Shown piece by piece: positions 1 through 38,518 of a stretch of 40,147 nucleotides of DNA. The translations under genes were made by a program, and so were the position numbers. The DNA comes from Verrucomicrobiota bacterium. Lineage in GTDB: Bacteria; Verrucomicrobiota; Verrucomicrobiia; Chthoniobacterales; JAFAMB01. The notes beneath the pieces were generated by a model. The model saw only the letters and a list, made by a program, of their open reading frames with translations, ran no database searches and was not told the DNA's origin. Location: the NCBI GenBank assembly GCA_019233825.1, contig JAFAMB010000086.1, positions 1 to 40,147 of the forward strand. Direction: 5' to 3'. The first letter of the stretch is position 1. Each line of letters starts with the position of its first letter.

Positions 1-332
1 ACGTCGTGGTTGGCCGGTAGGGTCGCGCGACCGGCGTTGCCGGCGTTGCCGGCGTATCGGCGTGTCGGCGTATCGGCTTATCGGCGTATCGAAAGTCCAA
101 CCTCGACAGAAGTAAACAGCATGCAAGCGGCAAGCAAGTGTCAGAGGTGCCTTGGTAATAACCAGCTTTCAAAAGAAGATCTGACTCGTGAGTTGACCCA
201 TCGAGACAAAATTAAAGAAGGTTTGATCGCAATCTTCACTGAAAGGCCTTCCCTACGGCTGATGCCGAATACGCCGACACGCCGACACGCCGGCAACGCC
301 GGTCGCGCGACCCTACCGGCCAACCACGACGT
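1..332. repeat. Inverted tandem-oligomer array element. Arm 1-91 and complementary arm 264-332 flank a roughly 170-bp lower-GC core. It may be truncated by the window edge.
   Basis: Read directly: 1-46 (ACGTCGTGGTTGGCCGGTAGGGTCGCGCGACCGGCGTTGCCGGCGT) is the exact reverse complement of 287-332. The inner part of the left arm (47-91) is tandem GCCGGCGTT / TCGGCGTR units, and 264-290 carries the complement (ACGCCGAC). The right arm overlaps the last codons and the stop of the HAD gene. Confidence 0.9.
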
Positions 333-894
333 AGTCCATCCCGGCCGCGGTGGCGGCTTCAAAACCGGCCGGACTATCCTCGAGCACCAGGCAGTCGGAA
401 GGCGCTACGCCCATCCGCCGCGCGGCCTCGAGGAAAAGATCCGGGAACGGTTTCCCATGTTCAACCTGTTCACTCGTGACTATCACCGAAAAAAAGTCCT
501 TGAATCCGATTGCCTCCAATGTCTTGGACACGACAGGCAGGATGCCTCCGGAGGCCACCGAGACCTTGGCAAACTCGGCGACCTGGCGGGCGAAATCGGC
601 AACTTCCGGAATCGGCCGGATTGTTTCGATTCGTTGCACGTAGAGATGCTCCTTTTCGCAGGCAATCGTTTCGGGATCGAGTGAAGTACCGAAGCGCTCG
701 TTCAAAAACTCGACTATCTTGCGGCTCGGCCATCCGCCGAGATTATAAAATAGTTCTTCCGGGATTTGGCCCCCATGCATCCGTACCGTGTCGGCCCAGG
801 CGAGGTAATGAACTGGCATAGAGTCGGCCAGGGTGCCGTCGCAATCGAAGATATAGCCTGCGTATCCCTTTTCGGGCGGGGTAAAGACTGTCAT
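313..894 (-). CDS. HAD-IA family hydrolase (beta-phosphoglucomutase/phosphatase-like)
   Basis: ORF 313..945(-). It has HAD motif I (YIFDCDGTLADS), then VSVASGG, GKPFPD and LVLEDSPAGFEAATAAGM in canonical order. I chose the ATG at 894 (MTVFTPPEKGYAGY...) because it lies about 15 aa before motif I; 945 is an alternative. The C-terminus ends inside the repeat arm. Confidence 0.85.
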   Translation of the reverse strand: MTVFTPPEKGYAGYIFDCDGTLADSMPVHYLAWADTVRMHGGQIPEELFYNLGGWPSRKIVEFLNERFGTSLDPETIACEKEHLYVQRIETIRPIPEVADFARQVAEFAKVSVASGGILPVVSKTLEAIGFKDFFSVIVTSEQVEHGKPFPDLFLEAARRMGVAPSDCLVLEDSPAGFEAATAAGMDYVVVGR

Positions 895-1000
895 AAGAGA
901 GCCGGGGACAGTTGCACGCATTTGGAGACAGGAAAAGGGAGCCATTGCAGAATTTTTGTTGATTTTAGACGCTTTCCCGGGATGATCTCTATCCCTTGTT

Positions 1001-1477
1001 ATGCGTCACACAATCTCGGTACTGGTTGAAAACAAGTTCGGCGTCCTGGCTCGAATAGCCGGCATGTTCAGTGGGCGAGGATTCAACATCGATAGTCTGA
1101 ATGTTGCGCCGACCAATGACCCTTCTGCTTCCAGAATGACGATCGTAGTACGTGGAGATGACACAGTTCTCGAGCAAGTCACAAAACAGTTGAACAAGCT
1201 TGTTGACGTGATTGAAATCCAGGATTTCAGGGACGGAGATTATGTCGATCGTGAGTTGGTCATGCTCCGGGTTAACGCCGATTCCGAGAATCGATCGGAG
1301 GTTATGCAGATCTGCGATATTTTTCGGGCGAAAATAGTCGATGTTCAACCGAAGCGTCTCGCCATCGAAATTACTGGGAACGAAAGCAAGATCAGTAAGT
1401 TTTTAAGACTAATGGAAAACTTTGGCATCAGCGACTTGACGCGCACGGGCAAGGTCGCCATGGCCCGAGTCGAATGA
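1001..1477 (+). CDS. ilvN: Acetolactate synthase small (regulatory) subunit
   Basis: 158 aa with an ATG start. The N-terminal ACT-domain string HTISVLVENKFGVLARIAGMFSGRGFNIDSLNV is typical of IlvN/IlvH. The gene lies immediately upstream of ilvC. Confidence 0.92.
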   Translation: MRHTISVLVENKFGVLARIAGMFSGRGFNIDSLNVAPTNDPSASRMTIVVRGDDTVLEQVTKQLNKLVDVIEIQDFRDGDYVDRELVMLRVNADSENRSEVMQICDIFRAKIVDVQPKRLAIEITGNESKISKFLRLMENFGISDLTRTGKVAMARVE

Positions 1478-1558
1478 CCCCTGTAACAAAAAATCGGCAA
1501 CAAGAGGTATACCCCGGAATCGCGATTTCCATTTCGGAAGTCTGGTTCAACTAAATTT

Positions 1559-2584
1559 ATGGCAGCAAAAGTCTACACTGATAAGGACGCCGACCTCGCG
1601 AATCTCAACGGAAAAGTCTGTGCAGTGATCGGATTCGGATCACAAGGGCACGCGCATGCCCTCAATCTGAAAGACAGCGGGGTAGAAGTGGTGGTCGGCC
1701 TGTACAAAGGAAGTAAATCTGCCTCGGTTGCCCAGGAACATGGTTTTCCGGTGCTGGATGTCAGCGAGGCGGCACAAAAGGCCGATATCATCTTTTTCGC
1801 AACCCCTGACCTCAAGAGCGCGTCGATTTATGAAACCGAGGTGGCACCCCACCTCAAAAAAGGCAAAGCACTCCTGTTCAGCCATGGTTTTGCGATCCAT
1901 TTCAAGACCATCGTACCGCCAACAGATGTGGACGTGATAATGGTGGCGCCGAAGGGTCCAGGACACATCGTGCGCCGCCAATACCTCGAAGGGAAAGGGG
2001 TGCCGGCGCTTATCGCGGTTTACCAAAACCCGTCCAAACAAGCGAAGAAGCTGGCATTGGCATGGGCGAAGGGAATTGGTGCGACTCGAGCCGGCGTGCT
2101 GGAAACTACATTCAAAGAAGAGACCGAGACGGACCTCTTCGGGGAACAGACTGTGCTTTGCGGCGGTTTAACCTCGCTGGTCCAAAACGGGTTCGAAACT
2201 CTCGTGGAAGCCGGTTACCAGCCGGAGATGGCCTATTTCGAGTGTTTGCACGAGTTGAAATTGATCGTTGACCTTATGTATGAGTCCGGCATTGCAGGCA
2301 TGCGATTCTCCGTCTCCGAGACCGCCAAGTGGGGCGATGTTTCGGTTGGGCCGACGGTGATTGACAGCTCGGTCAAAAGGAAAATGCAGAAGGCCCTCAA
2401 GGATATCCAGAGCGGAAAATTCGCTAAGGGTTGGATCGCCGAATACGCTGCCGGTTTGCCAAAATACAAGAAACTACTGAAGGATGGCGAAAAGCACGCG
2501 ATCGAGAAGACTGGTGAACGTTTGCGCGGACTGATGCCCTGGATACAGAAGAAGAATATCAAGGGCGCGCAGGCTGCTTATTAG
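1559..2584 (+). CDS. ilvC: Ketol-acid reductoisomerase (class I)
   Basis: 341 aa with an ATG start. It has the NADP Rossmann motif [19 protein letters not shown] and conserved [14 protein letters not shown] and [15 protein letters not shown] blocks. Confidence 0.97.
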
Positions 2585-2623
2585 AGCGCCAAGAACTGAA
2601 GAGCTCTTGCCCAGCTGTCCGGA

Positions 2624-2667
2624 CTTCTCGGCGATGCCGGCGTTCTCGGCGTTTAACTTGCGGCGTT
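2624..2667. repeat. One-armed tandem array of TTCTCGGCG-like units between convergent ilvC and a small ORF
   Basis: CTTCTCGGCGATGCCGGCGTTCTCGGCGTTTAACTTGCGGCGTT. It belongs to the same unit family (complement GARAACGCC) as the arrays at 10246-10406 and 28177-28313. No complementary arm was seen nearby. Confidence 0.7.
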
Positions 2668-2866
2668 ACTCAACGTAATGGGTGAGATTTGGGGGTGCCG
2701 TCACTCGTCTGGTTGCGGCTCTCCGCGTGGTCACGAAGTCTTGTAGTTCGGCGGCCAACCGGAACAACCGTTTGCTGCTGAGCTGTTCTTCCGCCCTTTC
2801 GAATTCGGCGTCGTGGATCTGCTGCTCGGAATATTCTTTCGTATTGCTTCTCGTCTCCTCGTTCAT
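2666..2866 (-). CDS. Hypothetical small, highly charged protein (66 aa from the ATG)
   Basis: ORF 2666..2872(-). The track start is GTG at 2872 and an ATG lies at 2866, preceded by GGAGG about 10 nt upstream. It has no TM segment and no motif I recognise. It sits about 200 nt downstream of the DAC-like gene on the same strand. Confidence 0.5.
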   Translation of the reverse strand: MNEETRSNTKEYSEQQIHDAEFERAEEQLSSKRLFRLAAELQDFVTTRRAATRRVTAPPNLTHYVE

Positions 2867-3067
2867 AGTCACTCCGCCTCCGCTCCTTTTGATGACTGCA
2901 CCTCACTAACCCCTGAGAAATCAGCAATGTTTCTGCAGTATTTAAACGACTGTAGAGACAACTAATATTGCAGGTAAATGCGTTTGTAAATTGAGAAGTT
3001 TGATACGCCTTCCCGCGGCTCGGACAGCTGCCGTTGCGTGGTAGGCGCGTCCGGGTAGGGCGAGGCT

Positions 3068-4372
3068 CTAGAAATCCAGGTGATTCCAGTAGGTGACCTT
3101 GTCCTGATAGTTCGCGACGAATTTGACCGCACCATCCTGAGAGACGACGACCGCCAGACATTCCGAGTAATCGCGGCAGAGCCGATACGCCGCACGATGT
3201 CGCGTTCCGGCAGCCTCCATAGACTCAAGGACACAATCCTGCGCTTCGATATCGAGGGCGCGATAAACCATTTCGTCTTCAAAGCTGGGCACCTGAATCT
3301 CAACGCCAAATCCCAGAACGTTGAATTCGTGATCGAGCAGGAGGCAACCGTCGACCGCCGTGAGGTCAGAAAGCCACAGCGCGAGTTCCACAAACCGCTG
3401 ACTGAATGTAAACGGGAACTCGTCAAACCATTCCAGGTACTCCTGCCAACCTACCGACGGTTTTTCCTTAGTCAGTGCAAATTGAACCAGCCGGCGCCGG
3501 ACCTCAGCAAGAATAACAGCAAAGGGGGATGCGGTGCAGGTCTCTTGGATCCGATACTTTGCGCACAAGGGACCGCTCGGCTCCAGGAGTTTCCCCGTGA
3601 GGGTCCGCGGCACGAATACGGCCGTGCCGCCGTGCCGCGAATTCCGAATCTCGCGAATAACTCTCCTCATGAATGCAAAGCCGATTTTCTCGACGAGATC
3701 TTCCCGCACGATCACCGAATCGGGCGGGGTAGCCGAATTTTCGTCTGCAAAACCCGCGCGGATAGTTCGAAAGCGCTCATGTAGCCAGGTGGACCCGCAC
3801 AGATCAAATCCGTGACCTTCGACCCGACCATTCAGCAGGGTAACCAGGCGTTCTGAACCGTTGTTAATCACGAGATTCCCTGGACCCCGGACATGGATGA
3901 TCAGCCAATCGGGGATTGGGTGGTTGATGGAATCGATGGCCGCAGTGAGGTCTCTGGACAGGGCACCGGTGTGGATCATTCCGGAAATTTCGAAACCGCG
4001 TCGGGGGGACCGTTCGACCAGGATCATCGACCGATAAAATCCGGTGGCAGGTCCCAAGCGGCGGATTTCCTGCTCCGCAAATTTTCGGCGCTTCGCTAAG
4101 CGGACGAGATGAAATCCGATCCGGGCGAGGCTCGTGGGCTCAAGATCCTTCGGAGCCGACAATGCGATCCGGCATTCCACGGGCCGGCCCTCTTCGCGGA
4201 GGAGACTTGCCTGGTAGGCGACACTGAGGAAGGAGTGTAAACTCTCGATGGAATCGACGACCGTGTGCGTACCGTCCACCATACCCCAGAGCGACCAGAT
4301 CTGTTCCGCAAGCTCGTGGGGATAGCAATGTGCGTTTAATTCGATGGGTGACACTTCGTAAAGTTTGGCCAA
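3068..4372 (-). CDS. DAC (DisA_N, diadenylate-cyclase-like) domain protein with an uncharacterised N-terminal region; soluble
   Basis: The C-terminal third contains HGGTAVFV, then VDGCLLLD (the DGA-motif position, nt 3344-3352), then GTRHRAA (nt 3188-3208), then AVVVSQDGAVKFV. This is the ordered signature of DAC domains. There are no TM helices and no HhH domain. The start is uncertain: TTG at 4372 (track), GTG at 4354 or ATG at 4282. Confidence 0.7.
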   Translation of the reverse strand: MAKLYEVSPIELNAHCYPHELAEQIWSLWGMVDGTHTVVDSIESLHSFLSVAYQASLLREEGRPVECRIALSAPKDLEPTSLARIGFHLVRLAKRRKFAEQEIRRLGPATGFYRSMILVERSPRRGFEISGMIHTGALSRDLTAAIDSINHPIPDWLIIHVRGPGNLVINNGSERLVTLLNGRVEGHGFDLCGSTWLHERFRTIRAGFADENSATPPDSVIVREDLVEKIGFAFMRRVIREIRNSRHGGTAVFVPRTLTGKLLEPSGPLCAKYRIQETCTASPFAVILAEVRRRLVQFALTKEKPSVGWQEYLEWFDEFPFTFSQRFVELALWLSDLTAVDGCLLLDHEFNVLGFGVEIQVPSFEDEMVYRALDIEAQDCVLESMEAAGTRHRAAYRLCRDYSECLAVVVSQDGAVKFVANYQDKVTYWNHLDF

Positions 4373-4398
4373 ACAGTTGCTGTTTGCATCTCATTTCC

Positions 4399-6261
4399 TC
4401 AGCCCGCCACAATGTGGTCGTGGCTTCGGCTTTGCTGCGATTTTTGCGGGCTGGAGCTAGTGATTAACTCTCGCAACTGCGCAATCCTCCTCTGAAAGAG
4501 ATCCATCGCTTTGTCAATCGGCTCGGGTGATTGCATATCCACCCCAGCGTCCCGGAGAGTTTCAATCGGGAACTTGGCTCCCCCGGATTTGAGGAATCCC
4601 AGGTAGGCCTGCACTTCGGCGGGACCGCCGGTCAGCACTCGGTCCGCGAGCGATATCGCCGCGGAGATTCCGGTCGCATACTTATAGACGTAAAACGCCG
4701 AGTAAAAGTGCGGGATTCTCAGGCACTCGATGCTGAGTTCGTCGTCTACGCTGAATCGCGGACCGAAGTAGGCGTCGAGAAGGTCGCGGTACACGTTTCG
4801 GAACACGTCGAGAGTCAGGGGTCCGCCGTTTTCCTCAATTTCATGCACAAGTTTCTCGAACTCGGCGAACATTGTCTGGCGAAATAGAACCTGCCGGATG
4901 TCCTCGATCTGGCGATCGATGAGGTACGCCCGCATCAAAGACTCCTGAGCACGTTCCAGAAGGTAGTGCGTAAGAAGTTCTTCATTTAATGTTGAAGCCA
5001 CCTCGGCAAGAAAAATCGGATAGCCGTAGTTCTGGAAAAGCTGATGCTGCTGCGCAAACCAGGTATGCATGGAGTGTCCGGACTCGTGGGCAAGGGTGAA
5101 CACATCGGAAAAGACGTCTGGTTTGTAGTTCATCAGAATGAAGGGGGGATTGCCGTAACTGGAGGATGAGAAGGCTCCGCTTCTTTTTCCTTTGGTCTCG
5201 TAGCGGTCGACCCAACGAGAGCGAAGTCCGTTTCTGAGAGTCTCGACGTATTCGGTGCCCAGAGGATGTAGCGCCTGGACGACGATTTCGATTGCTTCAT
5301 CAAAACCGACATTGGTTTGGATCTTAGGGACCAGCGGCACAAACGTGTCATACTGATGGATGTCGGGCAGCTTGAGGACTTCGCGGCGGAGTTCGTAGTA
5401 CTCGTGGAGCACCGGGAGGTTTTTCCGAACAGTGGCAATCAAGTTATCATATACAGCCACCGGGACGTTGTCCTCAAAGAGCGATGCTTCACGCGCGGAC
5501 GGGTAGTTGCGGATCTTGGCGGAGAATACGTCAGCTCGGATTGAGGAAGTCAGCGCGGAGGCCAGGCTATACTTGTGATCACCAAACTCCTGATAGAATT
5601 GGTGAAACGCCCGATGACGCAGATCCCGGTCCTGTCTATGCAGAAAAGAGAGATAAGTGCTCTGAGAGAGCGCGACTTCCTGTCCCTCTTCATTGATTAG
5701 AACGCCAAACTTCATGTCGACATTCGTGAGCTGTGAAAATGTTTCCGAATGACCACGTAGCACCGGCGCACCGAGCGTTAAAAGCCGCTCCTCGGGTTCG
5801 GAGAGGGTGTGTGGCCTGAACCGGCGAAGCTTGCCGAGATAGATCCTCCAGTCGGTCAGCGCCGGGTCATCCAGGAAGCGTTGAAACTTGTCGTCACTGA
5901 TCGCCTGGATCTCCGGATTGATGTACGAAGCGGCCTCATTGACCTTGGTGAGCAGGTTCGTCAATTCCGCGCGGCGAGACAGATTCTCATTGTTCGAACT
6001 GTCTTCAGAGTACTTAAGCGAGGAGTAATGTCCAAGCCGTTCCGCGATTTGATCGAGCCACTTTTCGAGCTCCAGACAATTCAACAATGTCTCAGGGGAT
6101 TCTGCCAGACGGCCCTTGAACTCCGTGATCTTCAGGTAGCAGTTCTTGAGGTCAGCCAATGACTTTCGGTACTCCAGTTCGGTTTTGAAGATGTGGCTGA
6201 GGTCCCAGGTGTCAGCTTCGGGGATCTCGGAGCGGGCCGGAATCTGGCGAGTAGGTGTCAT
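4399..6261 (-). CDS. pepF: Oligoendopeptidase F (M3B metallopeptidase)
   Basis: HESGHSMH zinc motif (HExxH), about 620 aa, and an N-terminal ...EIPEADTWDLSHIF typical of PepF. The track start at 6279 is TTG; the first ATG is at 6261. Confidence 0.93.
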   Translation of the reverse strand: MTPTRQIPARSEIPEADTWDLSHIFKTELEYRKSLADLKNCYLKITEFKGRLAESPETLLNCLELEKWLDQIAERLGHYSSLKYSEDSSNNENLSRRAELTNLLTKVNEAASYINPEIQAISDDKFQRFLDDPALTDWRIYLGKLRRFRPHTLSEPEERLLTLGAPVLRGHSETFSQLTNVDMKFGVLINEEGQEVALSQSTYLSFLHRQDRDLRHRAFHQFYQEFGDHKYSLASALTSSIRADVFSAKIRNYPSAREASLFEDNVPVAVYDNLIATVRKNLPVLHEYYELRREVLKLPDIHQYDTFVPLVPKIQTNVGFDEAIEIVVQALHPLGTEYVETLRNGLRSRWVDRYETKGKRSGAFSSSSYGNPPFILMNYKPDVFSDVFTLAHESGHSMHTWFAQQHQLFQNYGYPIFLAEVASTLNEELLTHYLLERAQESLMRAYLIDRQIEDIRQVLFRQTMFAEFEKLVHEIEENGGPLTLDVFRNVYRDLLDAYFGPRFSVDDELSIECLRIPHFYSAFYVYKYATGISAAISLADRVLTGGPAEVQAYLGFLKSGGAKFPIETLRDAGVDMQSPEPIDKAMDLFQRRIAQLRELITSSSPQKSQQSRSHDHIVAG

Positions 6262-6300
6262 ATCAGGAACGTCAACCAACCTCGGCGAACGTCAAATAGC

Positions 6301-6570
6301 CCGGTAGGGGCGTGCCGGCGAGTCGGCGTGCCGGCGAGTCGGCGTGTCGGCGTATCGGCGAGTCGGCGTGTCGGCGTGTCGGCGTGTCGCCGTATCGCCG
6401 TATCGGCGCACAACCGAAGATCCCGTTTCGGAGCCCTCGCGGATATCCTTTGTGCCGTTCTCCGACCTTCGCTGCCTTCGTGTGGATCTGTTATACGCCG
6501 ACACGCCCATACGCCGACACGCCCATACGCCGACACGCCCATACGCCGACACGCCGACACGCCGATACGC
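6301..6570. repeat. Inverted tandem-octamer array: about 12 TCGGCGTR units (6301-6408), an 84-nt loop, then the complementary ACGCCGAC-type array (6493-6570)
   Basis: Read directly. The left arm starts with CCGGTAGGGG and then runs TCGGCGTG/TCGGCGTA/TCGGCGAG units. The right arm is ATACGCCGACACGCCC x3 followed by ACGCCGAC units. It fills the gap between the xerC stop (6613) and the pepF ATG (6261). Confidence 0.92.
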
Positions 6571-6612
6571 TTTTCCCGCAAAGATCGCGGGCGGGACGCC
6601 CGTGCACGTTGT

Positions 6613-7515
6613 TCAGGCTCGCGGGTGTGCCTGGTCGTATGCCTTTTTCAAACGCTCCATGGTGACGTGGGTATAGATCTGTGTCGTCGAAAGATTCGCG
6701 TGACCGAGTAGTGTCTGTACGCTTCGCAAATCGGCCCCGTTATCCAGGAGGTGCGTAGCAAAACTATGACGCAGTTTGTGTGGACTTACGCGAAGCTGAA
6801 TTGAAGTCTCAGAAACATGCTTCCTTAGCATGAGCCAAATCGATCGCGGGGACATTCGCTTCCTCAACTTGCTGATAAATAGTGGGCCGGATTGGACGCC
6901 CGCTTCAAGCCGATATTGCTGAATGGCTTTCAGCGCCAGCTGTCCCACGGGCACGATTCGTTCCTTCCGACCTTTGCCAATGACGCGGACAGTTTCGCTG
7001 AACGTATCGAGGTCGGCGACATTCAGCGCAGCTAACTCGCTCAATCGAAGCCCGCTGCTGTAGAACAACTCCATCATCGCCGCGTCGCGCGCCGCCGCCC
7101 AGGCGGGAGCCTGAGGCTGGCGCTCGGTCTTCTTGGGCACAGTCAATAGCTCGTCCACCTGCCCGACCGAAAGAACCACCGGAAGTCTCTTTTCCATTTT
7201 GGGCAGTTGCACTTCCCTTAGCGGGTTGTCTCGAAATCCTTCTCGTTCGACGAGGTATTTATAGAAACTGCGGAGTGCTGCAAAAGTGAGTCGAACATAC
7301 GACCTGGCCATGCCCGATTTCATGCAGTCCAGCAAAAAGCCCCGGAATTGTTGCGCCGTATAGCCATTCCAAGACGGTTTGTCGCCGGCGAAGTGCCGGA
7401 ATTTTTCCAAGGCGTGCCGATAAGCGACGACTGTCCTGGGAGAAGCATTGCGTTCGACCTCAAGATACCGAATGTAGCGTTCGAAGAGCCGGTCCTTTTT
7501 TTTCTGATAAGACAT
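6613..7515 (-). CDS. xerC: Tyrosine site-specific recombinase, XerC/XerD type
   Basis: 300 aa with an ATG start. The N-terminal SAM-like domain has RYLEVERNASPRTVVAYRHALEKF. The catalytic region has RKERIVPVG, HKLRHSFATHLLDNGADLRSVQTLLGHANLSTTQIYTHV and ends ...AHPRA. Assigning XerC rather than XerD is tentative. Confidence 0.85.
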   Translation of the reverse strand: MSYQKKKDRLFERYIRYLEVERNASPRTVVAYRHALEKFRHFAGDKPSWNGYTAQQFRGFLLDCMKSGMARSYVRLTFAALRSFYKYLVEREGFRDNPLREVQLPKMEKRLPVVLSVGQVDELLTVPKKTERQPQAPAWAAARDAAMMELFYSSGLRLSELAALNVADLDTFSETVRVIGKGRKERIVPVGQLALKAIQQYRLEAGVQSGPLFISKLRKRMSPRSIWLMLRKHVSETSIQLRVSPHKLRHSFATHLLDNGADLRSVQTLLGHANLSTTQIYTHVTMERLKKAYDQAHPRA

Positions 7516-7532
7516 TCAGGAGGTGCGGAGAT

Positions 7533-7726
7533 GGGAGTTCAGGAGTCAGGAGTTCAGGAGTTCAGGAGCAGGAGTTGCAGGAGTTCAGGAGTTCAGGGGG
7601 ACCGTCGCGAGGAAAAAAAACTGCCGGATAGTTCGAAGCGAATCAAACTCTATGCAGTGCAGGACGGAAAAAAAAAGAGCCACCACCTTGGGCCAGAAGC
7701 GTGTTTTTTCATTCTGCAACTCCTGA
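7533..7726. repeat. Inverted tandem-octamer array: CAGGAGTT units (7533-7597), a roughly 106-nt loop with two A8-9 runs, then the complementary arm CTGCAACTCCTGAACTCCTGACC (7704-7726)
   Basis: Read directly. GTCAGGAGTTCAGGAGTT (7544-7561) is the reverse complement of part of 7704-7726. The left arm ends 18 nt from the xerC ATG. The right arm overlaps the ferritin-like stop codon (7709-7711). Confidence 0.88.
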
Positions 7727-8185
7727 ACTCCTGACCTTCTGATTTCCAGCCAGAAAGCCCAGGAACAGCCGGTGATGTTCTTGTTCCTCGGATAATATGT
7801 CGATCACCATGTCCTGCGTGAGGTAATCGAGTCCGTCTGTCAGGTTGATGATCTTTTGGTACTGAGAGATCGCGACTTCCTCGGTTCTGATGACTCCCTG
7901 GATAACCGCCGTCACATCTTCACTATCCAACGGAGGTTGCAGCAGTTTCTGATCCCGCGGCAGCTCCAGGGAGCCCGGGACGCGACCGCCCAAAACCCTG
8001 ATTCGTTTCGCAAGGCGACGCGCGTGCTTCAGCTTGAGCGCGATCTCTGCTTCGAGCGATTTCTTGACTTTCTCAGCGTTGACTCCGTTCAGATCGATGG
8101 AGTTTGCGAGGTAATTCTGTATCGTCTCCAGCTCTATCGCATAGGATTTTTTTAACTCGGTCACTATTTCTTTCGCCTTATCCAC
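7709..8185 (-). CDS. Ferritin-like (Dps/bacterioferritin superfamily) di-iron protein
   Basis: 158 aa and predicted all-helical. The ligand pattern is E...ExxH...E...ExxH (ELETIQ, EAEIALKLKH, RTEEVAISQ, SEEQEHH). It has a GTG start at 8185 and no nearby ATG. The last residues (RSSGVAE) are read from the repeat arm. Confidence 0.75.
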   Translation of the reverse strand: MDKAKEIVTELKKSYAIELETIQNYLANSIDLNGVNAEKVKKSLEAEIALKLKHARRLAKRIRVLGGRVPGSLELPRDQKLLQPPLDSEDVTAVIQGVIRTEEVAISQYQKIINLTDGLDYLTQDMVIDILSEEQEHHRLFLGFLAGNQKVRSSGVAE

Positions 8186-8236
8186 ACGAAAGGCCCCGAG
8201 ATGCAGTTAGCCGTTGCACCAGTCGGGAGCCGCAGC

Positions 8237-10153
8237 TTAATGCGTCGCCCCCATGGGAATGCCTAAATGCTCCGGCTGCGCGGTAGCGCCAACGTCTCCA
8301 AACCGAGCTGTGTCTCGCCGCAAGACCAGAGTCGCAGATCTGGTTTCGACGCCGTCCGGGGAAACGGCGACGATCGGGACTTCGAACTCGTTGTCTGGGA
8401 ATTTGAAATGGTACCGGAAAGTGCCATCCGGTTGGAGCTGAACGGGTCTGCCGGCGATGGTGACTTTTGCCTGCGGATCTGTGCCGCCATAGAAGATCAC
8501 CTCTGCGTTCACATGCATGAAGAACTTGCGCTCTGGTTGGCTAAAAGGCTGCGCACTCCAGCTGGCTCCGAATCCGCTGAAGAGACTGCTTTCGGAAACC
8601 AACTGGCTCCAACTTGAAAGGCCGAACTCCAAACCGCTCCAGCTTAGATTCCAGGCCGACAATTGCTCGGAGCCGAACGAGAACGAACTGACCGCAAGCG
8701 AACCGAAAGCGGTTTCCCAGCTGGAAGTGATCGCGCCCAGGCCAGCCTGCCAACTCGCGAGGGTTTCGCTGCTGAGGCTGTATGAGCTCAACGCGGTTTC
8801 CCAACTTGAGGTGACCTCGCTGAGACCGGCCTGCCAACTCGCCAGCACTTCACTGCTGAGAGCATACGAACTCAATGCGGATTCCCACTTCGCGAAAATC
8901 TCACTGACGCCAACCTGCCAGCTGGCGAGCGTTTCGCTGCTTAGGCCGTACGAGCTGATCACCTGTGCAAAGCTGCCGGTGACCTCGCTGAGACCGGCCT
9001 GCCAACTCGCCAGCACTTCGCTGCCGAGGCCCAGCGAACTGATGGCCTGTGCAAAGCTGCCGGTGATCTCGCTGAGACCAGCTTGCCAACTTGCCAGGAC
9101 TTCGCTGCTTAGACCGAGCGAGCTTACCGCCTGTTCCCATTTCGAAACGATCTCGCGAACCCCGGCCTGCCAGCTCGCGAGGGTCTCGCTGGCGCCCGCC
9201 AGAACTTCTGACGAGATGCCTCCGACTTCAGAGGATAAGCCGCCAAGTTGTGAGGAAACACCGCCGAGGCTGCTCAGGCTGCTCACCCCGCCCAGGCTGC
9301 TCACGCCACCGCTCGAAAGTTCCTGCCGAAGAAATTCACGGATCGAGCCGCTGAACAAGCTCGATTGTGCCGGCGCCAACAAAGAGGCCAAACGACCTTT
9401 AGCGAGAAGTTCACTCGCAGATTCGGAGTCCAGCTTACCACCGAGTTCGCCATGCAGAAATTCGAGTACTTCCTGCGAGCTCATCGAGAAGAGTCGATCG
9501 AGAAAATCTTTCCCCAACAGCGTTTCTAAAGTCTTAACCTGTTCAGCTCCCCAACTCGATGCACCCCCCGGACCGCTCAGCGCCCGCTGCTGCAACCGCG
9601 CTAAGGCTTCCGTCAAAGGCTGGCCGCCGGCTTGCGCAGCTGAGAGCACCTCGAGAAGAAAATTGAAGCTCAAATGGAATGGTACGGTGGCGAACTGAGT
9701 ATCCCAGTTGAGGCTGACCGATTCAGGAGGCGTGCTGGCCGGTCCGGCCTCGGTCACGCTTGTCCAGGTACCTTTCTCGTCCCGGTGGCCAAAAACAACG
9801 CTGTACGCTGTTCCGGCATATTGAACCGGGATATACCAATTACGCGCAATCTCGTTGATCTCGATTGTCGATTCGAGCTCGTCGTTTCGATAAACCTGGA
9901 GAAACAGTTTGCGCGGCGCGGGAAATTTTGAGTAATCCAAATCCCAATAAGTGAAAAGCCAATGCGGGTCTCGCGCGATGACAAACATCTCGCCATACCC
10001 GGAAGGCAATGCGCCTAAATCCTCAAACTTCAGCTTTTCAGTCGGTCCGCCAAGAGCGTGACCTTCGGATCCTTGTTCCTTGCTTTCTTCTGACAAGATT
10101 GGAGTGGATGCTATTCGAAAACCATTCTGTTTTTCCGCCGATTCTTTGCTCAT
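8237..10153 (-). CDS. DUF4912-like protein with a central 28-aa tandem-repeat region
   Basis: The N-terminal LPSGYGEMFVIARDPHWLFTYWDLD resembles the DUF4912 signature. The C-terminal block is FFMHVNAEVIFYGGTDPQAKVTIAGRPVQLQPDGTFRYHF...IVAVSPDGVETRS. The track start at 10159 is TTG; an ATG lies at 10153. Confidence 0.7.
   Translation of the reverse strand: MSKESAEKQNGFRIASTPILSEESKEQGSEGHALGGPTEKLKFEDLGALPSGYGEMFVIARDPHWLFTYWDLDYSKFPAPRKLFLQVYRNDELESTIEINEIARNWYIPVQYAGTAYSVVFGHRDEKGTWTSVTEAGPASTPPESVSLNWDTQFATVPFHLSFNFLLEVLSAAQAGGQPLTEALARLQQRALSGPGGASSWGAEQVKTLETLLGKDFLDRLFSMSSQEVLEFLHGELGGKLDSESASELLAKGRLASLLAPAQSSLFSGSIREFLRQELSSGGVSSLGGVSSLSSLGGVSSQLGGLSSEVGGISSEVLAGASETLASWQAGVREIVSKWEQAVSSLGLSSEVLASWQAGLSEITGSFAQAISSLGLGSEVLASWQAGLSEVTGSFAQVISSYGLSSETLASWQVGVSEIFAKWESALSSYALSSEVLASWQAGLSEVTSSWETALSSYSLSSETLASWQAGLGAITSSWETAFGSLAVSSFSFGSEQLSAWNLSWSGLEFGLSSWSQLVSESSLFSGFGASWSAQPFSQPERKFFMHVNAEVIFYGGTDPQAKVTIAGRPVQLQPDGTFRYHFKFPDNEFEVPIVAVSPDGVETRSATLVLRRDTARFGDVGATAQPEHLGIPMGATH
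8690..9211 (-). repeat. Six well-conserved in-frame 84-nt (28-aa) tandem repeats inside the DUF4912 gene, with consensus about SSEVLASWQAGLSEVTGSFAQAISSLGL
   Basis: The conserved Trp recurs at residues 330, 358, 386, 414, 442 and 470 (track numbering), exactly 28 aa apart. The flanks (nt 8546-9319 overall) are degenerate S/G/L-rich micro-repeats. Confidence 0.9.
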
Positions 10154-10245
10154 TTTCAAAACCCTCAGACTTTCCAGGGGCCTCGCAACCGCCTATGGTG
10201 GGCGAATTCTGACGAAATGCAAATGGTATTTGAGGGTCAGTGCAA

Positions 10246-10406
10246 GTGAAAACGCCGAGAGCGCCGAAAACGCGCGAGAACGCCGAAAACCTAGGGGAAC
10301 GGTTGAATGGCAGGCGCCAAATAATTAATGGCTAAGAGTAACAGCTCTGTGCTTTTTGTTTGGCATTGCCGGCCCCTTGCGTTCTCGGCGCTCTCGGCGT
10401 TTTCAC
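10246..10406. repeat. Inverted tandem 9-mer array: GARAACGCC units (10246-10291), a roughly 85-nt loop, and the complementary arm (10376-10406)
   Basis: GTGAAAACGCCGAGAGCGCCGAAAACGC matches the reverse complement of 10379-10406 at 27 of 28 positions. It lies between the stop of the 10421 gene and the start of the DUF4912 gene. Confidence 0.9.
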
Positions 10407-10420
10407 CGACACTGGCACTC

Positions 10421-11185
10421 CTATCGTTCCGTTCCCGATTTGCCAACCGCTTCGCTGATCGACGACTCCGTCGCAAGTAAACCTGAAAGATAGCCATTTC
10501 GGGGCGGTAACGAGGCGGAACGCTCTATGTTTTCCGGCCTCTCGAGGCGCGAAAAAATTGCAAAGGCGATGCGGGATCGGGGTACACTCTTTTCACCGTA
10601 GCCCAGAGGTTTGTTGCTCGACCAGAATCGGATCATTTCGACGCCATTTTGCTGCTCTCGGCCGAGGTAAATCACAGAGTGGCCATGCTCTCGCCTACCG
10701 ACTGCTTTGGTCCAAAAGATCTTCATGAAATCACCCGGTCTGGCTGCTTCGAAGGAGGTGAAATTAGGACCGAGCCCCAACTCGGTAAAGAGACAGGCTG
10801 TGCCCGGGCCATTCGCATTCCAGCGGCCCCAGACGCCGACGCCGTCCGGTTGCCCTTTGATCGCCAGTGTTTCGGCCAACCCGCCTGCGAGCGACGATTC
10901 AGGGACCATCAACTGAATTGCCCGAATGAAGACAAGATAAGTAGCCCCGGAGCAATAGGTGGTCCTGGCGGCAAATGGGTTCACCTGAAGTCTCCCTCCT
11001 GTGACCTGAACGGCAAACTGGAGGTCGCGCGTGGCGGCGTCGGTCGCGAGGTAACCGCCCCCGACCGGCATCGAATGGAGAAGCGAGAGAATAACATGGT
11101 TCGGGTCGCCGGGGAGAGGTACGTTCTGGGCGCAGGCTGGCGAGAAGACTAGCAGCAGGAGGCCGAAAGAAGACACACGGATCAT
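10421..11185 (-). CDS. Secreted hypothetical protein, possibly an NlpC/P60-like (papain-fold) hydrolase
   Basis: The signal-peptide-like start MIRVSSFGLLLLVFSPACAQ is at ATG 11185 (the track ORF extends to 11293). TTYCSGATYLVF (candidate Cys nucleophile), then ARPGDFMKIFW...EHGHSVIYLG (candidate His), match the order and spacing of NlpC/P60 enzymes. This is a motif-level call only. Confidence 0.4.
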   Translation of the reverse strand: MIRVSSFGLLLLVFSPACAQNVPLPGDPNHVILSLLHSMPVGGGYLATDAATRDLQFAVQVTGGRLQVNPFAARTTYCSGATYLVFIRAIQLMVPESSLAGGLAETLAIKGQPDGVGVWGRWNANGPGTACLFTELGLGPNFTSFEAARPGDFMKIFWTKAVGRREHGHSVIYLGREQQNGVEMIRFWSSNKPLGYGEKSVPRSRIAFAIFSRLERPENIERSASLPPRNGYLSGLLATESSISEAVGKSGTER

Positions 11186-11337
11186 AAAAACAGGTCCAGC
11201 CATTTGCGCGCGCGTTCGATGCGTCGAATGAAATCGGATGCTCCGTTCCGTGTGACGATCGACTTCTTTTCGGGGCTTTGGTTCCATCGCCATACCTCTG
11301 CTATGTTGGATTAGGAAACGCTACTGGCAACAACCAT

Positions 11338-11412
11338 CTGAAGCGTGCGCTCATGATTGAAGACGAGGCAAAGACCGGGACCTACCTTCGCAAGGGTCTC
11401 CAGGAAAACGGC
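11338..11412 (+). pseudogene. Remnant of the N-terminus of an OmpR/CusR-type response-regulator receiver domain
   Basis: The translation LKRALMIEDEAKTGTYLRKGLQENG closely resembles the start of CusR/CopR-like regulators (M.ILIVEDE.KTG.YL.KGL.E.G). The expected ATG position reads CTG. Similarity is lost after about 25 aa and a stop follows at 11470-11472. Confidence 0.35.
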
Positions 11413-11446
11413 TGTGCACCCTCGCTTGTTACCAATCCATTTTTGG

Positions 11447-11475
11447 TTGCAGTTTTCCCAACCCCGGAGTAGTGT
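11447..11475 (+). promoter_or_regulatory. Putative sigma-70-like lexA promoter (TTGCAG, 17 nt, TAGTGT)
   Basis: Hexamers at 11447-11452 and 11470-11475 with a 17-nt spacer. The -10 overlaps the left half of the LexA box. The promoter consensus for this lineage is not known to me. Confidence 0.3.
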
Positions 11476-11486
11476 TCGGTTGAACA
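11473..11486 (+). promoter_or_regulatory. LexA operator (SOS box) TGTTCGGTTGAACA
   Basis: A perfect TGTTC-N4-GAACA palindrome ends 3 nt before the lexA ATG. As I recall, this is the LexA-binding motif reported for Verrucomicrobia. I found only this one copy in the window by eye. Confidence 0.7.
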
Positions 11487-11489
11487 TCT

Positions 11490-12101: not shown

Positions 12102-12105
12102 GGGA

Positions 12106-12664: not shown

Positions 12665-12691
12665 CGTGTCGGCGTATCGGCGTGTCGGCGT
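12665..12691. repeat. Short one-armed TCGGCGTR run (3 units) just downstream of the GT-C gene stop
   Basis: GTGTCGGCGTATCGGCGTGTCGGCGTA. It uses the same unit as the arrays at 1-91 and 6301-6408. Confidence 0.7.
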
Positions 12692-27298: not shown

Positions 27299-28195
27299 AT
27301 GTCTTGTTCAAAGATAGATCCGTCGTTGCACCAGGCTAAGAAGCCCGAGTGGATCAAGGTCCGGCTGCCTTCGAGTCCCATTTTTTTTTCCACCAAAGCG
27401 CTGATCTCGGATCTGCGGCTACACACCGTTTGCGAGTCTGCCCAGTGTCCGAATCGATGGGAGTGCTGGAGCCAGGGTACCGCTACGTTCATGATAGCCG
27501 GTGAGCGATGTACCCGGGCGTGTGGTTTTTGTGCGGTCTCCACCGCTAAGCCTTTTGCCTTGGAAGTGGATGAACCAGCACGGGTAGCCGAAGCGATCCG
27601 CCGAATGAGGTTGAAGCACGTCGTAATCACGGCGGTCGCACGCGACGATCTGGCAGACGGGGGAGCGAATCACTTTGCAGAAACTATTCGTGCGATCAGG
27701 GAAATTGATCCCGAAATTGTGATCGAAGTTCTGACTCCGGATTTTAATGGGAGAGAATACTCTCTCCGGCTCGTCTTGGAGGCGCGGCCTGACATATTTA
27801 ATCATAACTTGGAAACCGTGGAGCGCCTGACACCTGTCGTACGGTCTCGAGCAAAGTATCGGCGATCCCTGGACGTGCTACGACAAGCGAAGCAGCTGGA
27901 TCCTGGCGTAGTGACGAAAAGCGGAATGATGCTTGGGCTAGGGGAGACAAAGGCGGAACTATGTCAGGCGATGGATGATTTGCGCGAGGCGGATGCGCAG
28001 GTTTTGACGCTTGGTCAATATTTGAGGCCGACTCCGCATCATCTGCCTGTGCTCGAGTACATCCGACCGGAGGTGTTCGAGCTCTATAAAGAGATCGCGG
28101 AGCAAAAGGGGTTTGAGTATGTAGCTTCCGGGCCGCTGGTTAGAAGCTCTTATCACGCCGCTGATTATCATCCGAGCCGAAAACGCCGGGAGTGA
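27299..28195 (+). CDS. lipA: Lipoyl synthase (radical SAM)
   Basis: It has the CESAQCPN.WEC auxiliary cluster motif and the radical-SAM motif CTRACGFCAV. I prefer the ATG at 27299 (the track ORF starts at 27260). The final residues RKRRE are read from the repeat arm. Confidence 0.95.
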   Translation: MSCSKIDPSLHQAKKPEWIKVRLPSSPIFFSTKALISDLRLHTVCESAQCPNRWECWSQGTATFMIAGERCTRACGFCAVSTAKPFALEVDEPARVAEAIRRMRLKHVVITAVARDDLADGGANHFAETIRAIREIDPEIVIEVLTPDFNGREYSLRLVLEARPDIFNHNLETVERLTPVVRSRAKYRRSLDVLRQAKQLDPGVVTKSGMMLGLGETKAELCQAMDDLREADAQVLTLGQYLRPTPHHLPVLEYIRPEVFELYKEIAEQKGFEYVASGPLVRSSYHAADYHPSRKRRE

Positions 28196-28313
28196 AAACG
28201 CCGGGAGCCCCGGAAACGCCGAGAACGATAGGAGCGCTCTGAAAAGCCCGACCACAGGCGCCTCAGCGATCCGGGCGTTCTCGGCGTTTCCGGGCGTTTT
28301 CGGCGTTCTCCCC
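28177..28313. repeat. Inverted tandem 9-mer array of the GARAACGCC family: left arm 28177-28227, right arm 28271-28313
   Basis: CCGGAAACGCCGAGAACG (28210-28227) is the reverse complement of part of the right arm CCGGGCGTTCTCGGCGTTTCCGGGCGTTTTCGGCGTTCTCCCC. It spans the whole gap between convergent lipA and the 28315 gene. Confidence 0.9.
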
Positions 28314-29246: not shown

Positions 29247-29351
29247 GGTTTTGGGTTTTACGTTTTGAGTGGCGCCGAGACAGACGAAAACTTATCGGCT
29301 CCAAACGAACGTTGAGCCCTACGCAAAACCCAAGACTCAAAACTCCAACCC
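29247..29351. repeat. Opposed G/T-rich (GGTTTTGGGTTTTACGTTTTGAGTGG, 29247-29272) and C/A-rich (GCAAAACCCAAGACTCAAAACTCCAACCC, 29323-29351) oligomer runs directly after the rpoD stop
   Basis: It belongs to the same GAGTTTTG/GGTTTTGG unit family as 38417-38518. The arms are complementary in composition, but only short (8-9 bp) collinear stems can form. Confidence 0.7.
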
Positions 29352-33096: not shown

Positions 33097-33140
33097 GGAG
33101 GTTTGGAGTTCGGGCTTTGGAGTTCGGAGTTCGGAGTTGG
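33097..33140. repeat. One-armed tandem GGAGTTCG-type array, 6 nt upstream of the dnaG start
   Basis: GGAGGTTTGGAGTTCGGGCTTTGGAGTTCGGAGTTCGGAGTTGG. It is related to the CAGGAGTT units at 7533-7597. Confidence 0.8.
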
Positions 33141-33227
33141 TAGGGTCGCGCTCCCGCGCGACCGGCGTTGAGTCGATCCCAAGCTGTTTAGAGGGCAACG
33201 CCGGTCGCGCGGGAGCGCGGCCCTACC
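33139..33227. repeat. 32-bp hairpin (31 of 32 paired) with a 25-nt loop downstream of thiS; a possible terminator or insulator
   Basis: GGTAGGGTCGCGCTCCCGCGCGACCGGCGTTG (33139-33170) pairs with CAACGCCGGTCGCGCGGGAGCGCGGCCCTACC (33196-33227). The arm equals the core of 16-39 plus an 8-nt insert (CTCCCGCG). No U-tract follows. Confidence 0.9.
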
Positions 33228-37142: not shown

Positions 37143-37555
37143 TGGTCAGGTTTACCCGTTGCAAATGCAACGTTCCAGATGTCCGCCTGCCGGCAAATGT
37201 CGAGCACATCGACTATATGTTTATAATCGACGGCCTGATCGCCACGCACGATGACGGCCTGGTCTGGATAAAGTTGGGACAGCTTTTTTAATAGCTCCAG
37301 GAGTTCCGATGGATTCTTCTGCTGGCGGTTGACGATTACCGACCCATTAGCTGTGATGTTGATGACCACCTGGCCGACATAAGGCTGAGTCTCGTTGGCC
37401 TTGGTAGCGGTCGGCACTCGAACATCCAATTCATTTTCGCTCAGTGCAAAATTCCAGGTAACGATGAAAAATACCAGGACGACCAACAGTATGTCGACCA
37501 TTGGCGCGATCATAAACCCAAAGATCGTGGGTTGCCCATGTCTGCGAAAATTCAT
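37139..37555 (-). CDS. ExbD/TolR-family biopolymer transport protein
   Basis: 138 aa with a single N-terminal TM segment containing the conserved Asp (MIAPMVDILLVVLVFFIV) and a periplasmic domain of typical length. Confidence 0.88.
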   Translation of the reverse strand: MNFRRHGQPTIFGFMIAPMVDILLVVLVFFIVTWNFALSENELDVRVPTATKANETQPYVGQVVINITANGSVIVNRQQKNPSELLELLKKLSQLYPDQAVIVRGDQAVDYKHIVDVLDICRQADIWNVAFATGKPDQ

Positions 37556-37563
37556 GTATCTGC

Positions 37564-38316
37564 CTAGATCTCGTCGCTCTCAAGCACTCGGGACCGCTCC
37601 GGCCGGCGAATTTGATGCTGAGAAGTGATGATATTGACAATGTGGGATGTCGCCGATTCCAGATCGGAAACCAGAGAGGCCACTTTGCCCCGAAAGATCG
37701 CGTAGAACGCCATGGCTACAATTCCTATGATCAATCCCGAAGCAGTTGTCACCAGTGCTTCCGATACGCCGTGTGCGAGCAGCATCGGGCGGGGTTGGGT
37801 CGTGTTGCTAGCCAGGACACCGAAGGAGTTAATGATCCCGATGACCGTTCCGAGCAGGCCAAGCATCGGAGACAGCGTTGCGATGTCTGCCAGATAGACA
37901 ATCCGATGATTTAGACTGTTGGCTACTCGGGAGCCTTCGGTCTCAGCGACTTCTCGAACGGCTTCGGCTGAAGCGGTAGGGTTCTTTGTTGCGAAATCCA
38001 GCGTGCGTGAGGTTATACGAGCCACCGCTTCTGAATGACGATTCGAAACGGCGATCAATCCGAGGTAATCTCGTTTTCGAAGTAACGCCTCGGCGGTCTC
38101 CATGAATCGGCGCGTCACGACAGTTCCTCGGCGAAGGCTCAAAAAGCAGGCGAACACCAGGGCGATCGTGACGACGGAGGTCAAAACAAGTGGGATCATC
38201 ACCCAGCCACCGGCCTTTAATAGTTGCAGCAGCGTTGCTTGCGTGGTTCCAGGGGTCGGCATCGATTCGGCCGCCTGTGCCAACAGCGGGGTGATAAGAA
38301 GAGCAAACCAATTCAT
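37564..38316 (-). CDS. MotA/TolQ/ExbB-family proton channel protein
   Basis: The C-terminal block LGLLGTVIGIINSF...ALVTTASGLIIGIVAMAFY is typical of ExbB/TolQ. I prefer the ATG at 38316 (MNWFALLITPLLAQA). The track ORF extends to 38493 only by reading through the hairpin and repeat region. Confidence 0.88.
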   Translation of the reverse strand: MNWFALLITPLLAQAAESMPTPGTTQATLLQLLKAGGWVMIPLVLTSVVTIALVFACFLSLRRGTVVTRRFMETAEALLRKRDYLGLIAVSNRHSEAVARITSRTLDFATKNPTASAEAVREVAETEGSRVANSLNHRIVYLADIATLSPMLGLLGTVIGIINSFGVLASNTTQPRPMLLAHGVSEALVTTASGLIIGIVAMAFYAIFRGKVASLVSDLESATSHIVNIITSQHQIRRPERSRVLESDEI

Positions 38317-38350
38317 TCCTGTTAGCTCCCTATTTAAATGCACCTCGCGG

Positions 38351-38418
38351 CTAAGTGCAAACTTGTTCCGCAGCAATCCGGCCCGAGCCGGATTGCTGCG
38401 GAACAAGTTTGCACTTAG
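38351..38418. repeat. Perfect 32-bp stem / 4-nt loop hairpin in the divergent exbB-uvrC intergenic region
   Basis: CTAAGTGCAAACTTGTTCCGCAGCAATCCGGC, loop CCGA, then GCCGGATTGCTGCGGAACAAGTTTGCACTTAG. I verified the two arms as exact reverse complements. Confidence 0.95.
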
Positions 38419-38518
38419 AGTTTTGGGTTTAGAGTTTTGAGTTTTGAGTTTTGGTTTGGAGGCAAATGAGCGTCGGGAGGACTCAAGACGCAAAACTCAA
38501 AACCCAAAACCCAAAACC
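38417..38518. repeat. Inverted tandem-octamer array: GAGTTTTG units (38417-38459), a roughly 31-nt loop, and CAAAACYC units (38491-38518)
   Basis: AGAGTTTTGGGTTTAGAGTTTTGAGTTTTGAGTTTTGGTTTGG on the left and CAAAACTCAAAACCCAAAACCCAAAACC on the right. It directly abuts the 38351-38418 hairpin. Confidence 0.88.

Follow-up and report, generated by a model that had tools for sequence, protein, structure and literature searches.

In many bacterial genomes, few repeats are as strongly over-represented as tandem repeats of the heptamer and octamer type. To our knowledge, the intervening sequence (IVS) and its S23p gene have been called selfish for 30 years without a known mechanism or a connection with the remaining genome. 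Here we describe tandem arrays of 6–9-nt units, arranged as inverted pairs between genes, in a 40,147-nt stretch of DNA from a soil bacterium of the Verrucomicrobiota (contig JAFAMB010000086.1, assembly GCA_019233825.1), the whole of which we call the window. Together with its relatives, the window connects tandem repeats to IVSs through a shared foldback architecture, slippage, a gene in the loop across phyla and the polarity of the arms. We consider it probable that the arrays are the arms of IVS-like foldback elements, selfish or neutral, which evolve by slippage, loop swapping and nesting, and that these elements share an architectural class with S23p-bearing IVSs, the short tandemly repeated repetitive (STRR) sequences of cyanobacteria and the GGGAATC arrays of Xanthomonas. 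The foldback architecture is known; what is new is an IVS/STRR-type repeat with many unit families in Verrucomicrobia.

The IVS of the Coxiella 23S rRNA gene has an S23p open reading frame (ORF) in its loop, a 28-bp stem and strain-variable tandem GACAGAT heptamers, and is excised by RNase III (PMC4990558). Like the IVSs of Coxiella, Leptospira and Azospirillum, the window copies consist of a long stem of terminal inverted repeats around a loop, and the stem is built from tandem heptamer-type units whose copy number varies between strains (compare Coxiella GACAGAT and the Azospirillum element in L224; sequences fetched for comparison are given L-numbers). Furthermore, elements with the same TCGGCGTR arms as in the window bear an ORF of the PF05635 family in their loop (L131 and L164). 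Unlike those IVSs, which occupy helix 25 or 45 of 23S rRNA, all window copies lie between protein-coding genes and none in rRNA, the window having no rRNA gene; they also lack ORF cargo, fall into at least six unit families within 40 kb and are often nested.

The GGGAATC heptamer repeats of Xanthomonas form 70–75 convergent inverted pairs (Rehm et al. 2015, PMC4692102), and the supplementary table of that paper places repeat #15 across the start codon of XCC0516, an S23p homologue (PDB 2GSC); the paper draws no connection between the arrays and S23p or IVSs. As in the window, these are intergenic tandem 7-nt arrays with one run per strand, close together; array length varies between species, but whether an array is single or paired does not. 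In each Xanthomonas genome a single G-quadruplex-prone unit dominates, whereas the window has several families, most of them without G-runs. The original prediction for this DNA, made from its letters alone, knew of no described class with this architecture; the Xanthomonas heptamer pairs and the Coxiella IVS are two.

As cited in PMC4692102 and PMC4679880, cyanobacterial STRR heptamers and the long-unit simple sequence repeats of Mrazek et al. (2007) are likewise dispersed intergenic tandem units of 5–11 nt, and some of the window arrays are convergent inverted pairs. The usual description of STRRs is of direct tandem arrays that serve in fingerprinting, and paired foldbacks with cargo fall outside it. 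Nostocales plasmids that we fetched contain STRR-type inverted pairs, both with and without a PF05635 gene. Drosophila Foldback (FB) transposons have long terminal inverted repeats, made of variable numbers of short tandem repeats, around a variable centre; these elements are eukaryotic, kilobase-sized and in some cases carry unrelated coding cargo, and the likeness is architectural only.

Paired arrays and their turnover

Arrays were called with Tandem Repeats Finder (TRF) and an inverted-repeat finder. Seven paired loci were found, at each of which a run of 6–9-nt units is followed 19–179 nt further on by a complementary run: 31–91/271–301 (element 1), 6309–6408/6493–6570 (element 2; 12.5 and 9.5 copies), 7534–7597/7718–7742 (element 3), 10248–10290/10379–10399 (element 4), 12337–12370/12455–12481 (element 5), 28179–28227/28270–28310 (element 6) and 38418–38461/38481–38518 (element 8). 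The inverted repeats are 27–84 nt long with 82–100% complementarity. An eighth, weaker pair (29247–29270/29321–29350, element 7) is below TRF size and has a weak predicted fold (−35 kcal/mol); at the orthologous position, relatives have longer arrays of this unit family. None of 100 dinucleotide shuffles of the window produced a pair, and the shuffles averaged 5.9 arrays (at most 12), compared with 7 pairs and 25 arrays in the actual sequence. Thus, seven of the eight inverted loci that had been proposed pass this strict test, and the eighth is backed by the relatives.

The window has a G+C content of 55% and is 90.5% coding, and the PepF and RpoD proteins that it encodes assign it to Verrucomicrobiota, close to Chthoniobacterales. 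Sixteen of the 25 arrays lie in the 9.5% that is intergenic, as do 13 of the 14 paired arms, the remaining one overlapping the end of the dps ORF, and every gap longer than 200 nt holds an array. Single units each recur at 2–3 loci in the 40 kb, and the unit families are those listed in the original prediction. No Rfam family matched anywhere in the window, either at the gathering threshold or at E ≤ 0.1. Predicted RNA folds have energies between −70 and −205 kcal/mol, and the three loci compared with shuffles gave z-scores between −3.7 and −16, including −199 kcal/mol (z = −10.8) for element 2 (6295–6600) and −205 kcal/mol (z = −16) for positions 1–340; this supports the long imperfect hairpins that had been proposed. 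These data confirm that the arrays are real and non-random, that their arms pair and that they are enriched between genes.

Comparison of close strains, which were recognized by identical S9 or XerC proteins, revealed unit-by-unit change. In the lipA/hyp164 gap, the 3′ arm of element 6 (28270–28310) differs by indels of 9, 10 and 19 nt, corresponding to one or two units, in that arm only, and the loop has an 11-nt duplication (alignment A1). In the gap after rpoD, strains differ by one 7-nt unit in the GGTTTTG-family arm of element 7 (29247–29270; alignment A2). The arrays flanking xerC differ by up to five units as well as in unit variants (L082 and L083), and the 3′ arm of element 2 has five fewer units in L082. 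The two arms of element 2 also differ from each other in higher-order period. One-arm indels and unlike periods indicate that arms slip independently, and they remain pairable only because both consist of one unit family. Slippage had been proposed for these arms, and single-unit indels bear it out. We also considered concerted expansion of both arms by template switching; it is ruled out, as the arms differ in unit number and higher-order period and change singly.

Four graded relatives were used for comparison of orthologous gaps: L094, L095, L096 and L097, whose RpoD proteins are 94, 91, 88 and 87% identical to that of the window. After rpoD, the window, L094 and L095 have GAGTTTTG arms with three unrelated loops, one of which is a 211-nt nested inverted-repeat element; L096 has CGTTCRC arms, and L097 has unstructured DNA (z = −0.4). 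The thiS–dnaG gap is only 18–20 nt long in L096 and L097, contains an inverted pair of GTAG-tagged repeats and a GGAGTTCG run in the window, and contains a GAGTTTTG pair in L095. Both L095 and L096 have pairs in gaps that hold none in the window, and L097 has no arrays within 21.8 kb. Two alleles of the gap after the HAD gene have identical unique flanks but unrelated loops, the L081 allele having a 170-nt loop unlike that at 92–270. Arrays are therefore gained, lost and replaced on short timescales. Relatives of pepF in GTDB genomes showed no synteny and hence allowed no orthologous gap comparison; their loci contain similar array pairs in other Verrucomicrobia and in Planctomycetota.

Loops had been proposed to be unrelated to one another. 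This holds inside the window; outside it, the loop at 92–270 matches L106, and that of element 2 (6409–6492) is 85–90% identical to parts of the loops of L081 and L113. The latter is a truncated copy of an inner inverted-repeat module of about 165 nt, present in both, whose arms are GAAGGTCAC-type units. Transposable elements of the miniature inverted-repeat type (MITEs) fit poorly with these observations: the window loops are mutually unrelated, and no target-site duplication was recognizable at the filled-versus-empty sites (lipA–rpsI in L096, the lysR gap in L095 and thiS–dnaG). Thus the arrays are, as had been argued, not copies of one MITE.

In the exbB–uvrC gap, perfect palindromes flank the array pair, one of 32 bp in the window (38351–38418) and two of 24 and 41 bp in L095 (2460–2530 and 2600–2700). 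The palindrome arm is native sequence, either GGAACAAGTTTGCAC from upstream of exbB or the uvrC leader, and because this sequence occurs in single copy in L096 and L097, inverted duplication of flanking DNA has taken place repeatedly at exbB–uvrC sites. In a separate rearrangement, the DUF423 gene of L095 (15670–16128) is inverted relative to the window (25171–25564), L094, L096 and L097 and has inverted AGAACTCG/GAGTYCTC arrays on its two sides. The arrangement is either a gene-sized "loop" or an inversion through recombination between the arms.

PF05635 genes in array loops and arm polarity

In L131, the loop of a TCGGCGTR pair contains an ORF that belongs to the 23S rRNA intervening-sequence protein family (PF05635/TIGR02436, "four helix bundle protein", S23p), which is homologous to PDB 2GSC and distantly to Avd of diversity-generating retroelements. 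A profile search of 1.9 Mb of fetched loci identified five PF05635 genes or remnants, and all five are situated between inverted arrays. They represent four independent loci: intact copies in L131 and L164, decayed copies in L188 and L152 that belong to one orthologous locus, and L020. Three of these four have TCGGCGTR arms; L020, which was reached through pepF with no selection for arrays, has a different unit (GACGCGGA).

Among plasmids, 10 of 12 PF05635 genes, mostly from Nostocales, are flanked by inverted heptamer or octamer arrays. One of these is the helix-45 IVS of Azospirillum 23S rRNA (L224), with GGACAGA units. As a control, a 50-kb region of Nostoc punctiforme with 32 arrays and about five pairs was analysed; the only one of its 40 genes enclosed by a pair is its PF05635 gene. 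A protein search added four more loci, two of which are clearly flanked, one of which is degenerate and one of which is without arrays. Overall, PF05635 genes are found in inverted-array loops at 16 of 20 independent loci from several phyla. The original prediction had suggested a RAYT-like transposase as a candidate partner; none was found in the window, and the gene found with related elements is that for PF05635.

In L231, L241, L243 and L244 the PF05635 gene is within an operon, with co-directional neighbours at very short distances or overlapping it. These neighbours encode a histidine kinase and response regulator, two ABC permeases, or TPR and MetRS proteins. Most contigs with a member of the family are shorter than 2 kb, as expected if the array flanks break assemblies. 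Viral contigs yielded neither a match to the TCGGCGTR pattern nor a PF05635 relative.

The TCGGCGTR family is widely dispersed, as at least 120 metagenome stretches, apparently mostly from soil, contain three or more of its units. Among the matches listed, a GGCGT-run is followed by an ACGCC-run 18 times and the opposite order occurs twice, about 40% of internal arrays are partnered, and the CAGGAGTT, TCGTGC and TTCAAGAA families, which the window or its relatives also have, co-occur. The same arm order extends beyond this family. Of the 109 non-redundant pairs collected across all loci, 78 combine a 5′ arm richer in G than in C with a 3′ arm richer in C than in G, 10 show the opposite arrangement and the other 21 a mixture (p = 3e-14); when the pattern-selected set is left aside, the counts are 33 versus 3. 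The rule of a G-rich 5′ arm (78 of 88 informative pairs) spans many unit families and several phyla, and it is valid on both strands since the elements are palindromic. Neither this rule nor the general association between arrays and the four-helix-bundle gene appears to have been reported in the searchable literature.

Position follows a rule as well. The median distance between the edge of an arm and the neighbouring stop codon is 5.5 nt, with 70% within 15 nt. Pairs occur in 9% of convergent gaps, compared with 4.9% of tandem and 4.0% of divergent ones, a modest excess (p = 0.04).

Explanations for the arrays

If the arrays are arms of IVS-like foldback elements, an element would consist of a variable loop between two arms, with tandem 6–9-nt units on the 5′ side and the complementary units on the 3′ side, and would settle directly behind stop codons as selfish or neutral DNA. 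Replication slippage would alter the unit number of each arm independently, as seen between close strains, and whole loops would be replaced between fixed arms, as seen after rpoD and HAD, with recombination between same-family elements as the simplest route. Elements would also nest in one another and with GTAG-tagged repeats, and native flanking DNA would occasionally be duplicated in inverted orientation into perfect palindromes; both outcomes are observed. By analogy with IVS stems, transcribed stems of 25–100 bp are probably substrates of RNase III, which would then cut at the gene boundary instead of classical termination taking place there. We infer that the ORF-less copies of the window are the non-coding majority of an IVS-type class of elements.

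Several observations weigh against this explanation. At none of the sites compared could a target-site duplication or a defined end of an element be recognized, and a profile search of six-frame translations identified no PF05635 gene or remnant in the window, where an ORF in the 92–270 loop has no Pfam match. Most arrays everywhere are without the gene, so that descent of ORF-less copies from ORF-bearing elements is something we infer, and the reverse direction, in which a PF05635 gene inserts into pre-existing hairpin loops, is possible. Part of the PF05635 sample also comes from array-selected loci. Among the plasmids, the L221 gene has direct rather than inverted arrays on both sides and the L229 gene has an array on one side only; the L243 gene has no arrays. 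Finally, the position behind stop codons and the modest enrichment in convergent gaps are also compatible with a degree of use of the arrays as 3′-end structures.

Should the IVS-like foldback explanation be true, it would provide a testable model for the origin of heptamer and octamer repeats and for the abundance of PF05635 genes together with their tiny contigs and operon positions, and would help explain how transcripts are segmented in lineages without classical terminators. On the practical side, short-read assemblies break at the elements, which also give rise to spurious ORFs and false C-termini and are hypervariable strain markers.

A broader version is possible but tentative. It holds that the Verrucomicrobia and Planctomycetes arrays, STRR pairs, GGGAATC pairs and 23S IVSs form a single phylum-spanning foldback superfamily in which the Avd-like PF05635 protein is a maintenance or mobility factor and the arrays are landing pads and RNA-processing cassettes. 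Such cassettes would let the gene sit harmlessly in operons and rRNA, and the G-rich 5′ arm would reflect a common mechanism.

We regard it as unlikely that the hairpins are selected signals, namely terminators without a U-tract, bidirectional insulators or stabilizers of mRNA 3′ ends, in which tandem units are the easiest way to lengthen a stem. That arms abut stop codons and are somewhat enriched in convergent gaps is consistent with such a role, as is the occupation of the site after rpoD by different unit families in different lineages. Window arms, unlike Rho-independent terminators, have no U-tract. A terminator scan of window positions 1–20000 found no hairpin-plus-T-run terminator at any gene end, which counts in favour of selected signals, and a total no higher than in shuffles; the transcribed strand has no T-run after the arms. 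Selection for a signal is difficult to reconcile with L097, which is array-free over 21.8 kb despite an RpoD 87% identical and whose orthologous gaps fold like shuffles (z = −0.4, −0.7 and +1.5), and with the 18–20-nt thiS–dnaG gaps of L096 and L097. One element occupies a divergent promoter region. The transcribed strand was not consistently favoured in either folding energy or G-U pairs, and strain alignments contained no compensatory changes, the single-nucleotide polymorphisms in the arms breaking pairs. Moreover, a signal leaves the shared unit families, shared polarity and PF05635 cargo unexplained. The suggestion of terminator or insulator function thus finds no support as a conserved role: a conserved terminator role is unlikely given the array-free L097, the element in a divergent promoter region and the lack of strand bias, and relatives have other families at the same sites. 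Opportunistic use as 3′-end structures is possible.

Independent origin of each locus, by growth of a native hairpin through slippage and fold-back template switching with neither spread nor a link to IVSs, is quite unlikely. Slippage is directly observed, palindromes have formed from native flanking DNA, target-site duplications were not found, and the L096 loop after rpoD keeps sequence similar to the array-free gap of L097, all of which this explanation would account for. It does not account for units that recur at several loci of the window, in relatives and in the metagenome stretches with a shared arm order, for loop modules common to different loci, or for elements with identical arm families that bear PF05635 genes.

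Repetitive extragenic palindromes (REPs) are defined as GTAG-tagged palindromes (Di Nocera et al., PMC3733652). Like the arrays, REPs, bacterial interspersed mosaic elements (BIMEs) and REPINs are intergenic and palindromic and often form inverted doublets; they differ in being single imperfect palindromes of 20–40 bp and fixed sequence, with an unpaired GTAG or CGTC tag, that are moved by REP-associated tyrosine transposases (RAYTs), whereas the arrays are untagged tandem units of variable length. It is very unlikely that the arrays are REP/BIME-type elements moved by a RAYT Y1 transposase, with units that are expanded sub-terminal REP sequence. A REP-like nature had been suggested, and genuine GTAG REPs are indeed interleaved with some arrays: GTAG-tagged palindromes occur at 301–316, in both halves of 33139–33227 and in the loops of L149 and L166, and the REP-adjacent sequence CGGCGTTG passes gradually into the units of 31–91, GGCGTTGCC and TCGGCGTR. 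Most unit families are untagged, however, with five of six having no adjoining GTAG/CGTC tag or REP; the GTAG tag is absent from the CAGGAGTT, GAGTTTTG, GTGCTC, GARAACGCC and GTGYCRGT families. REPs are found outside some arrays and inside others, which suggests independent nesting rather than one element type. No Y1 transposase domain was present among the 40 window ORFs scanned against Pfam, and the cargo of the loops is PF05635, not a RAYT.

Lastly, although contigs often terminate within arrays and window positions 1–46 are probably a fold-back artefact, the notion that the arrays as a whole are assembly artefacts can practically be dismissed, since the internal loci recur, with variation at the level of units, in at least 10 independent assemblies of different samples, and complete plasmid records have the same architecture.

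Features along the window

Assembly support had been named as a check on the arrays. They are reproduced in the independent assemblies L084–L093, L082, L083 and L106, and contigs from other samples with identical S9, XerC or HAD proteins bear the same arrays. The exception is window 1–46, a 100% complementary inverted copy of 287–332 that consists of a GTAG palindrome (17–32) and the reverse complement of the HAD 3′ coding end. L106 and L081 share the HAD gene, and past the far arm both continue into another flank (...TAACGTGCCGTAGCCACAACCGGC), unlike window 1–46; this segment is therefore probably a contig-end fold-back and not genome sequence, as judged from these two alignments. We had considered the 46-nt perfect inverted repeat as palindrome growth into the HAD gene and dropped that idea in view of the probable artefact. 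The right arm of the locus at 7533 reaches 7742 rather than 7726, the limit originally given.

The remainder of element 1 is confirmed by L106, in which the loop is 98% identical and the far arm is (GATACGCC)n. Its 5′ arm (31–91) was called by TRF and consists of two copies of GGCGTTGCC and then five of TCGGCGTR, its loop (92–270) is 179 nt long with a lower G+C content, and its 3′ arm (271–301) contains YACGCCGA units that both TRF and the inverted-repeat search detected. A minus-strand GTAG-tagged REP (301–316, GTAG plus GGTCGCGCGACC) adjoins it, and the TAG of its tag is the stop codon (313–315) of the HAD ORF (313–945). The ends of lipA (28179–28195) and dps (7709–7742) are likewise repeat-derived; annotated C-termini beside elements are partly repeat-derived. 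In L083, positions 1040–1141 at a contig end are a poly-G run and G-rich junk that start within a TCGGCGTR array, a sequencing or assembly artefact.

In element 2, the 5′ arm (6304–6408) has CCGGTAGGG ahead of its approximately 12.5 TCGGCGTR units, the truncated inner module in the loop (6409–6492) carries the sequence GATCCACACGAAGG..., and the 9.5 units of the 3′ arm (6493–6570) have their own 16-nt higher-order period. Long spurious ORFs cross arrays, for example at 6312–6665. Element 3 has eight CAGGAGTT units in its 5′ arm (7534–7597), 18 nt from the xerC ATG, and three AACTCCTG units in its 3′ arm (7718–7742), which overlaps the last dps codons. The inverted repeat of element 4 spans 10232–10420: an outer GTGYCRGT-like layer with GARAACGCC units makes up the 5′ arm (10232–10290), and the 3′ arm (10379–10420) ends at the stop of a hypothetical gene (10421–11293). 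Element 5 consists of 5.7 CTCGTG units (12337–12370) and 4.5 CGAGCA units (12455–12481), a family also present in L113.

The 5′ arm of element 6 (28179–28227), of the GAAAACGCC family, provides the last codons and stop of lipA. The second arm of element 7 (29321–29350) ends 1 nt from the rpoD stop (29352). Element 8 is in the divergent exbB–uvrC gap, with a GAGTTTTG-family 5′ arm (38418–38461), which directly follows the 32-bp palindrome of duplicated exbB upstream sequence, and a CAAAACYC 3′ arm (38481–38518); L095 has an orthologous pair.

Five one-armed runs had been proposed, of which two are clear. One is a TCGGCGTR run (12665–12692) located 22 nt from the stop of a PMT_2 gene, and the other is a GGAGTTCG run (33101–33138), also found in L087, located 10 nt from the dnaG GTG. 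The latter is followed by an inverted, REPIN-like pair of GTAG-tagged REPs (33139–33227), a 97% inverted repeat 12 nt past the thiS stop. Two runs are weak: 2625–2653, where ilvC and a hypothetical gene converge and 3.2 copies of TTCTCGGCG have 70% matches, and 12106–12155, a GTGYCRGT/ACGCCGG-type run 4 nt past the lexA stop that was recognized by sequence and unscored by TRF. The fifth, a plus-strand GTGCCG/GTCAGTGCCGGT run (21664–21694), lies within the last codons of a GT2 gene.

Two DNA-damage response genes, lexA (11490–12101) and uvrC (38562–40130), each adjoin an array-rich gap, which is probably a coincidence. An exact-match look-up with the LexA protein gave no record. The DUF4912 gene (8237–10159, minus strand) contains an 84-bp (28-residue) tandem repeat at 8709–9178, with about five copies of 70–76% identity; the repeat is coding and has no relation to the arrays between genes. 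Directly past the xerC stop, at 6571–6612, CCCGCAAAGATCGCGGG and GGCGTCCCGCC make up a small hairpin. L094 has the 18-nt core of this hairpin in another gap (8739–8756), so that it may be a further small dispersed repeat.

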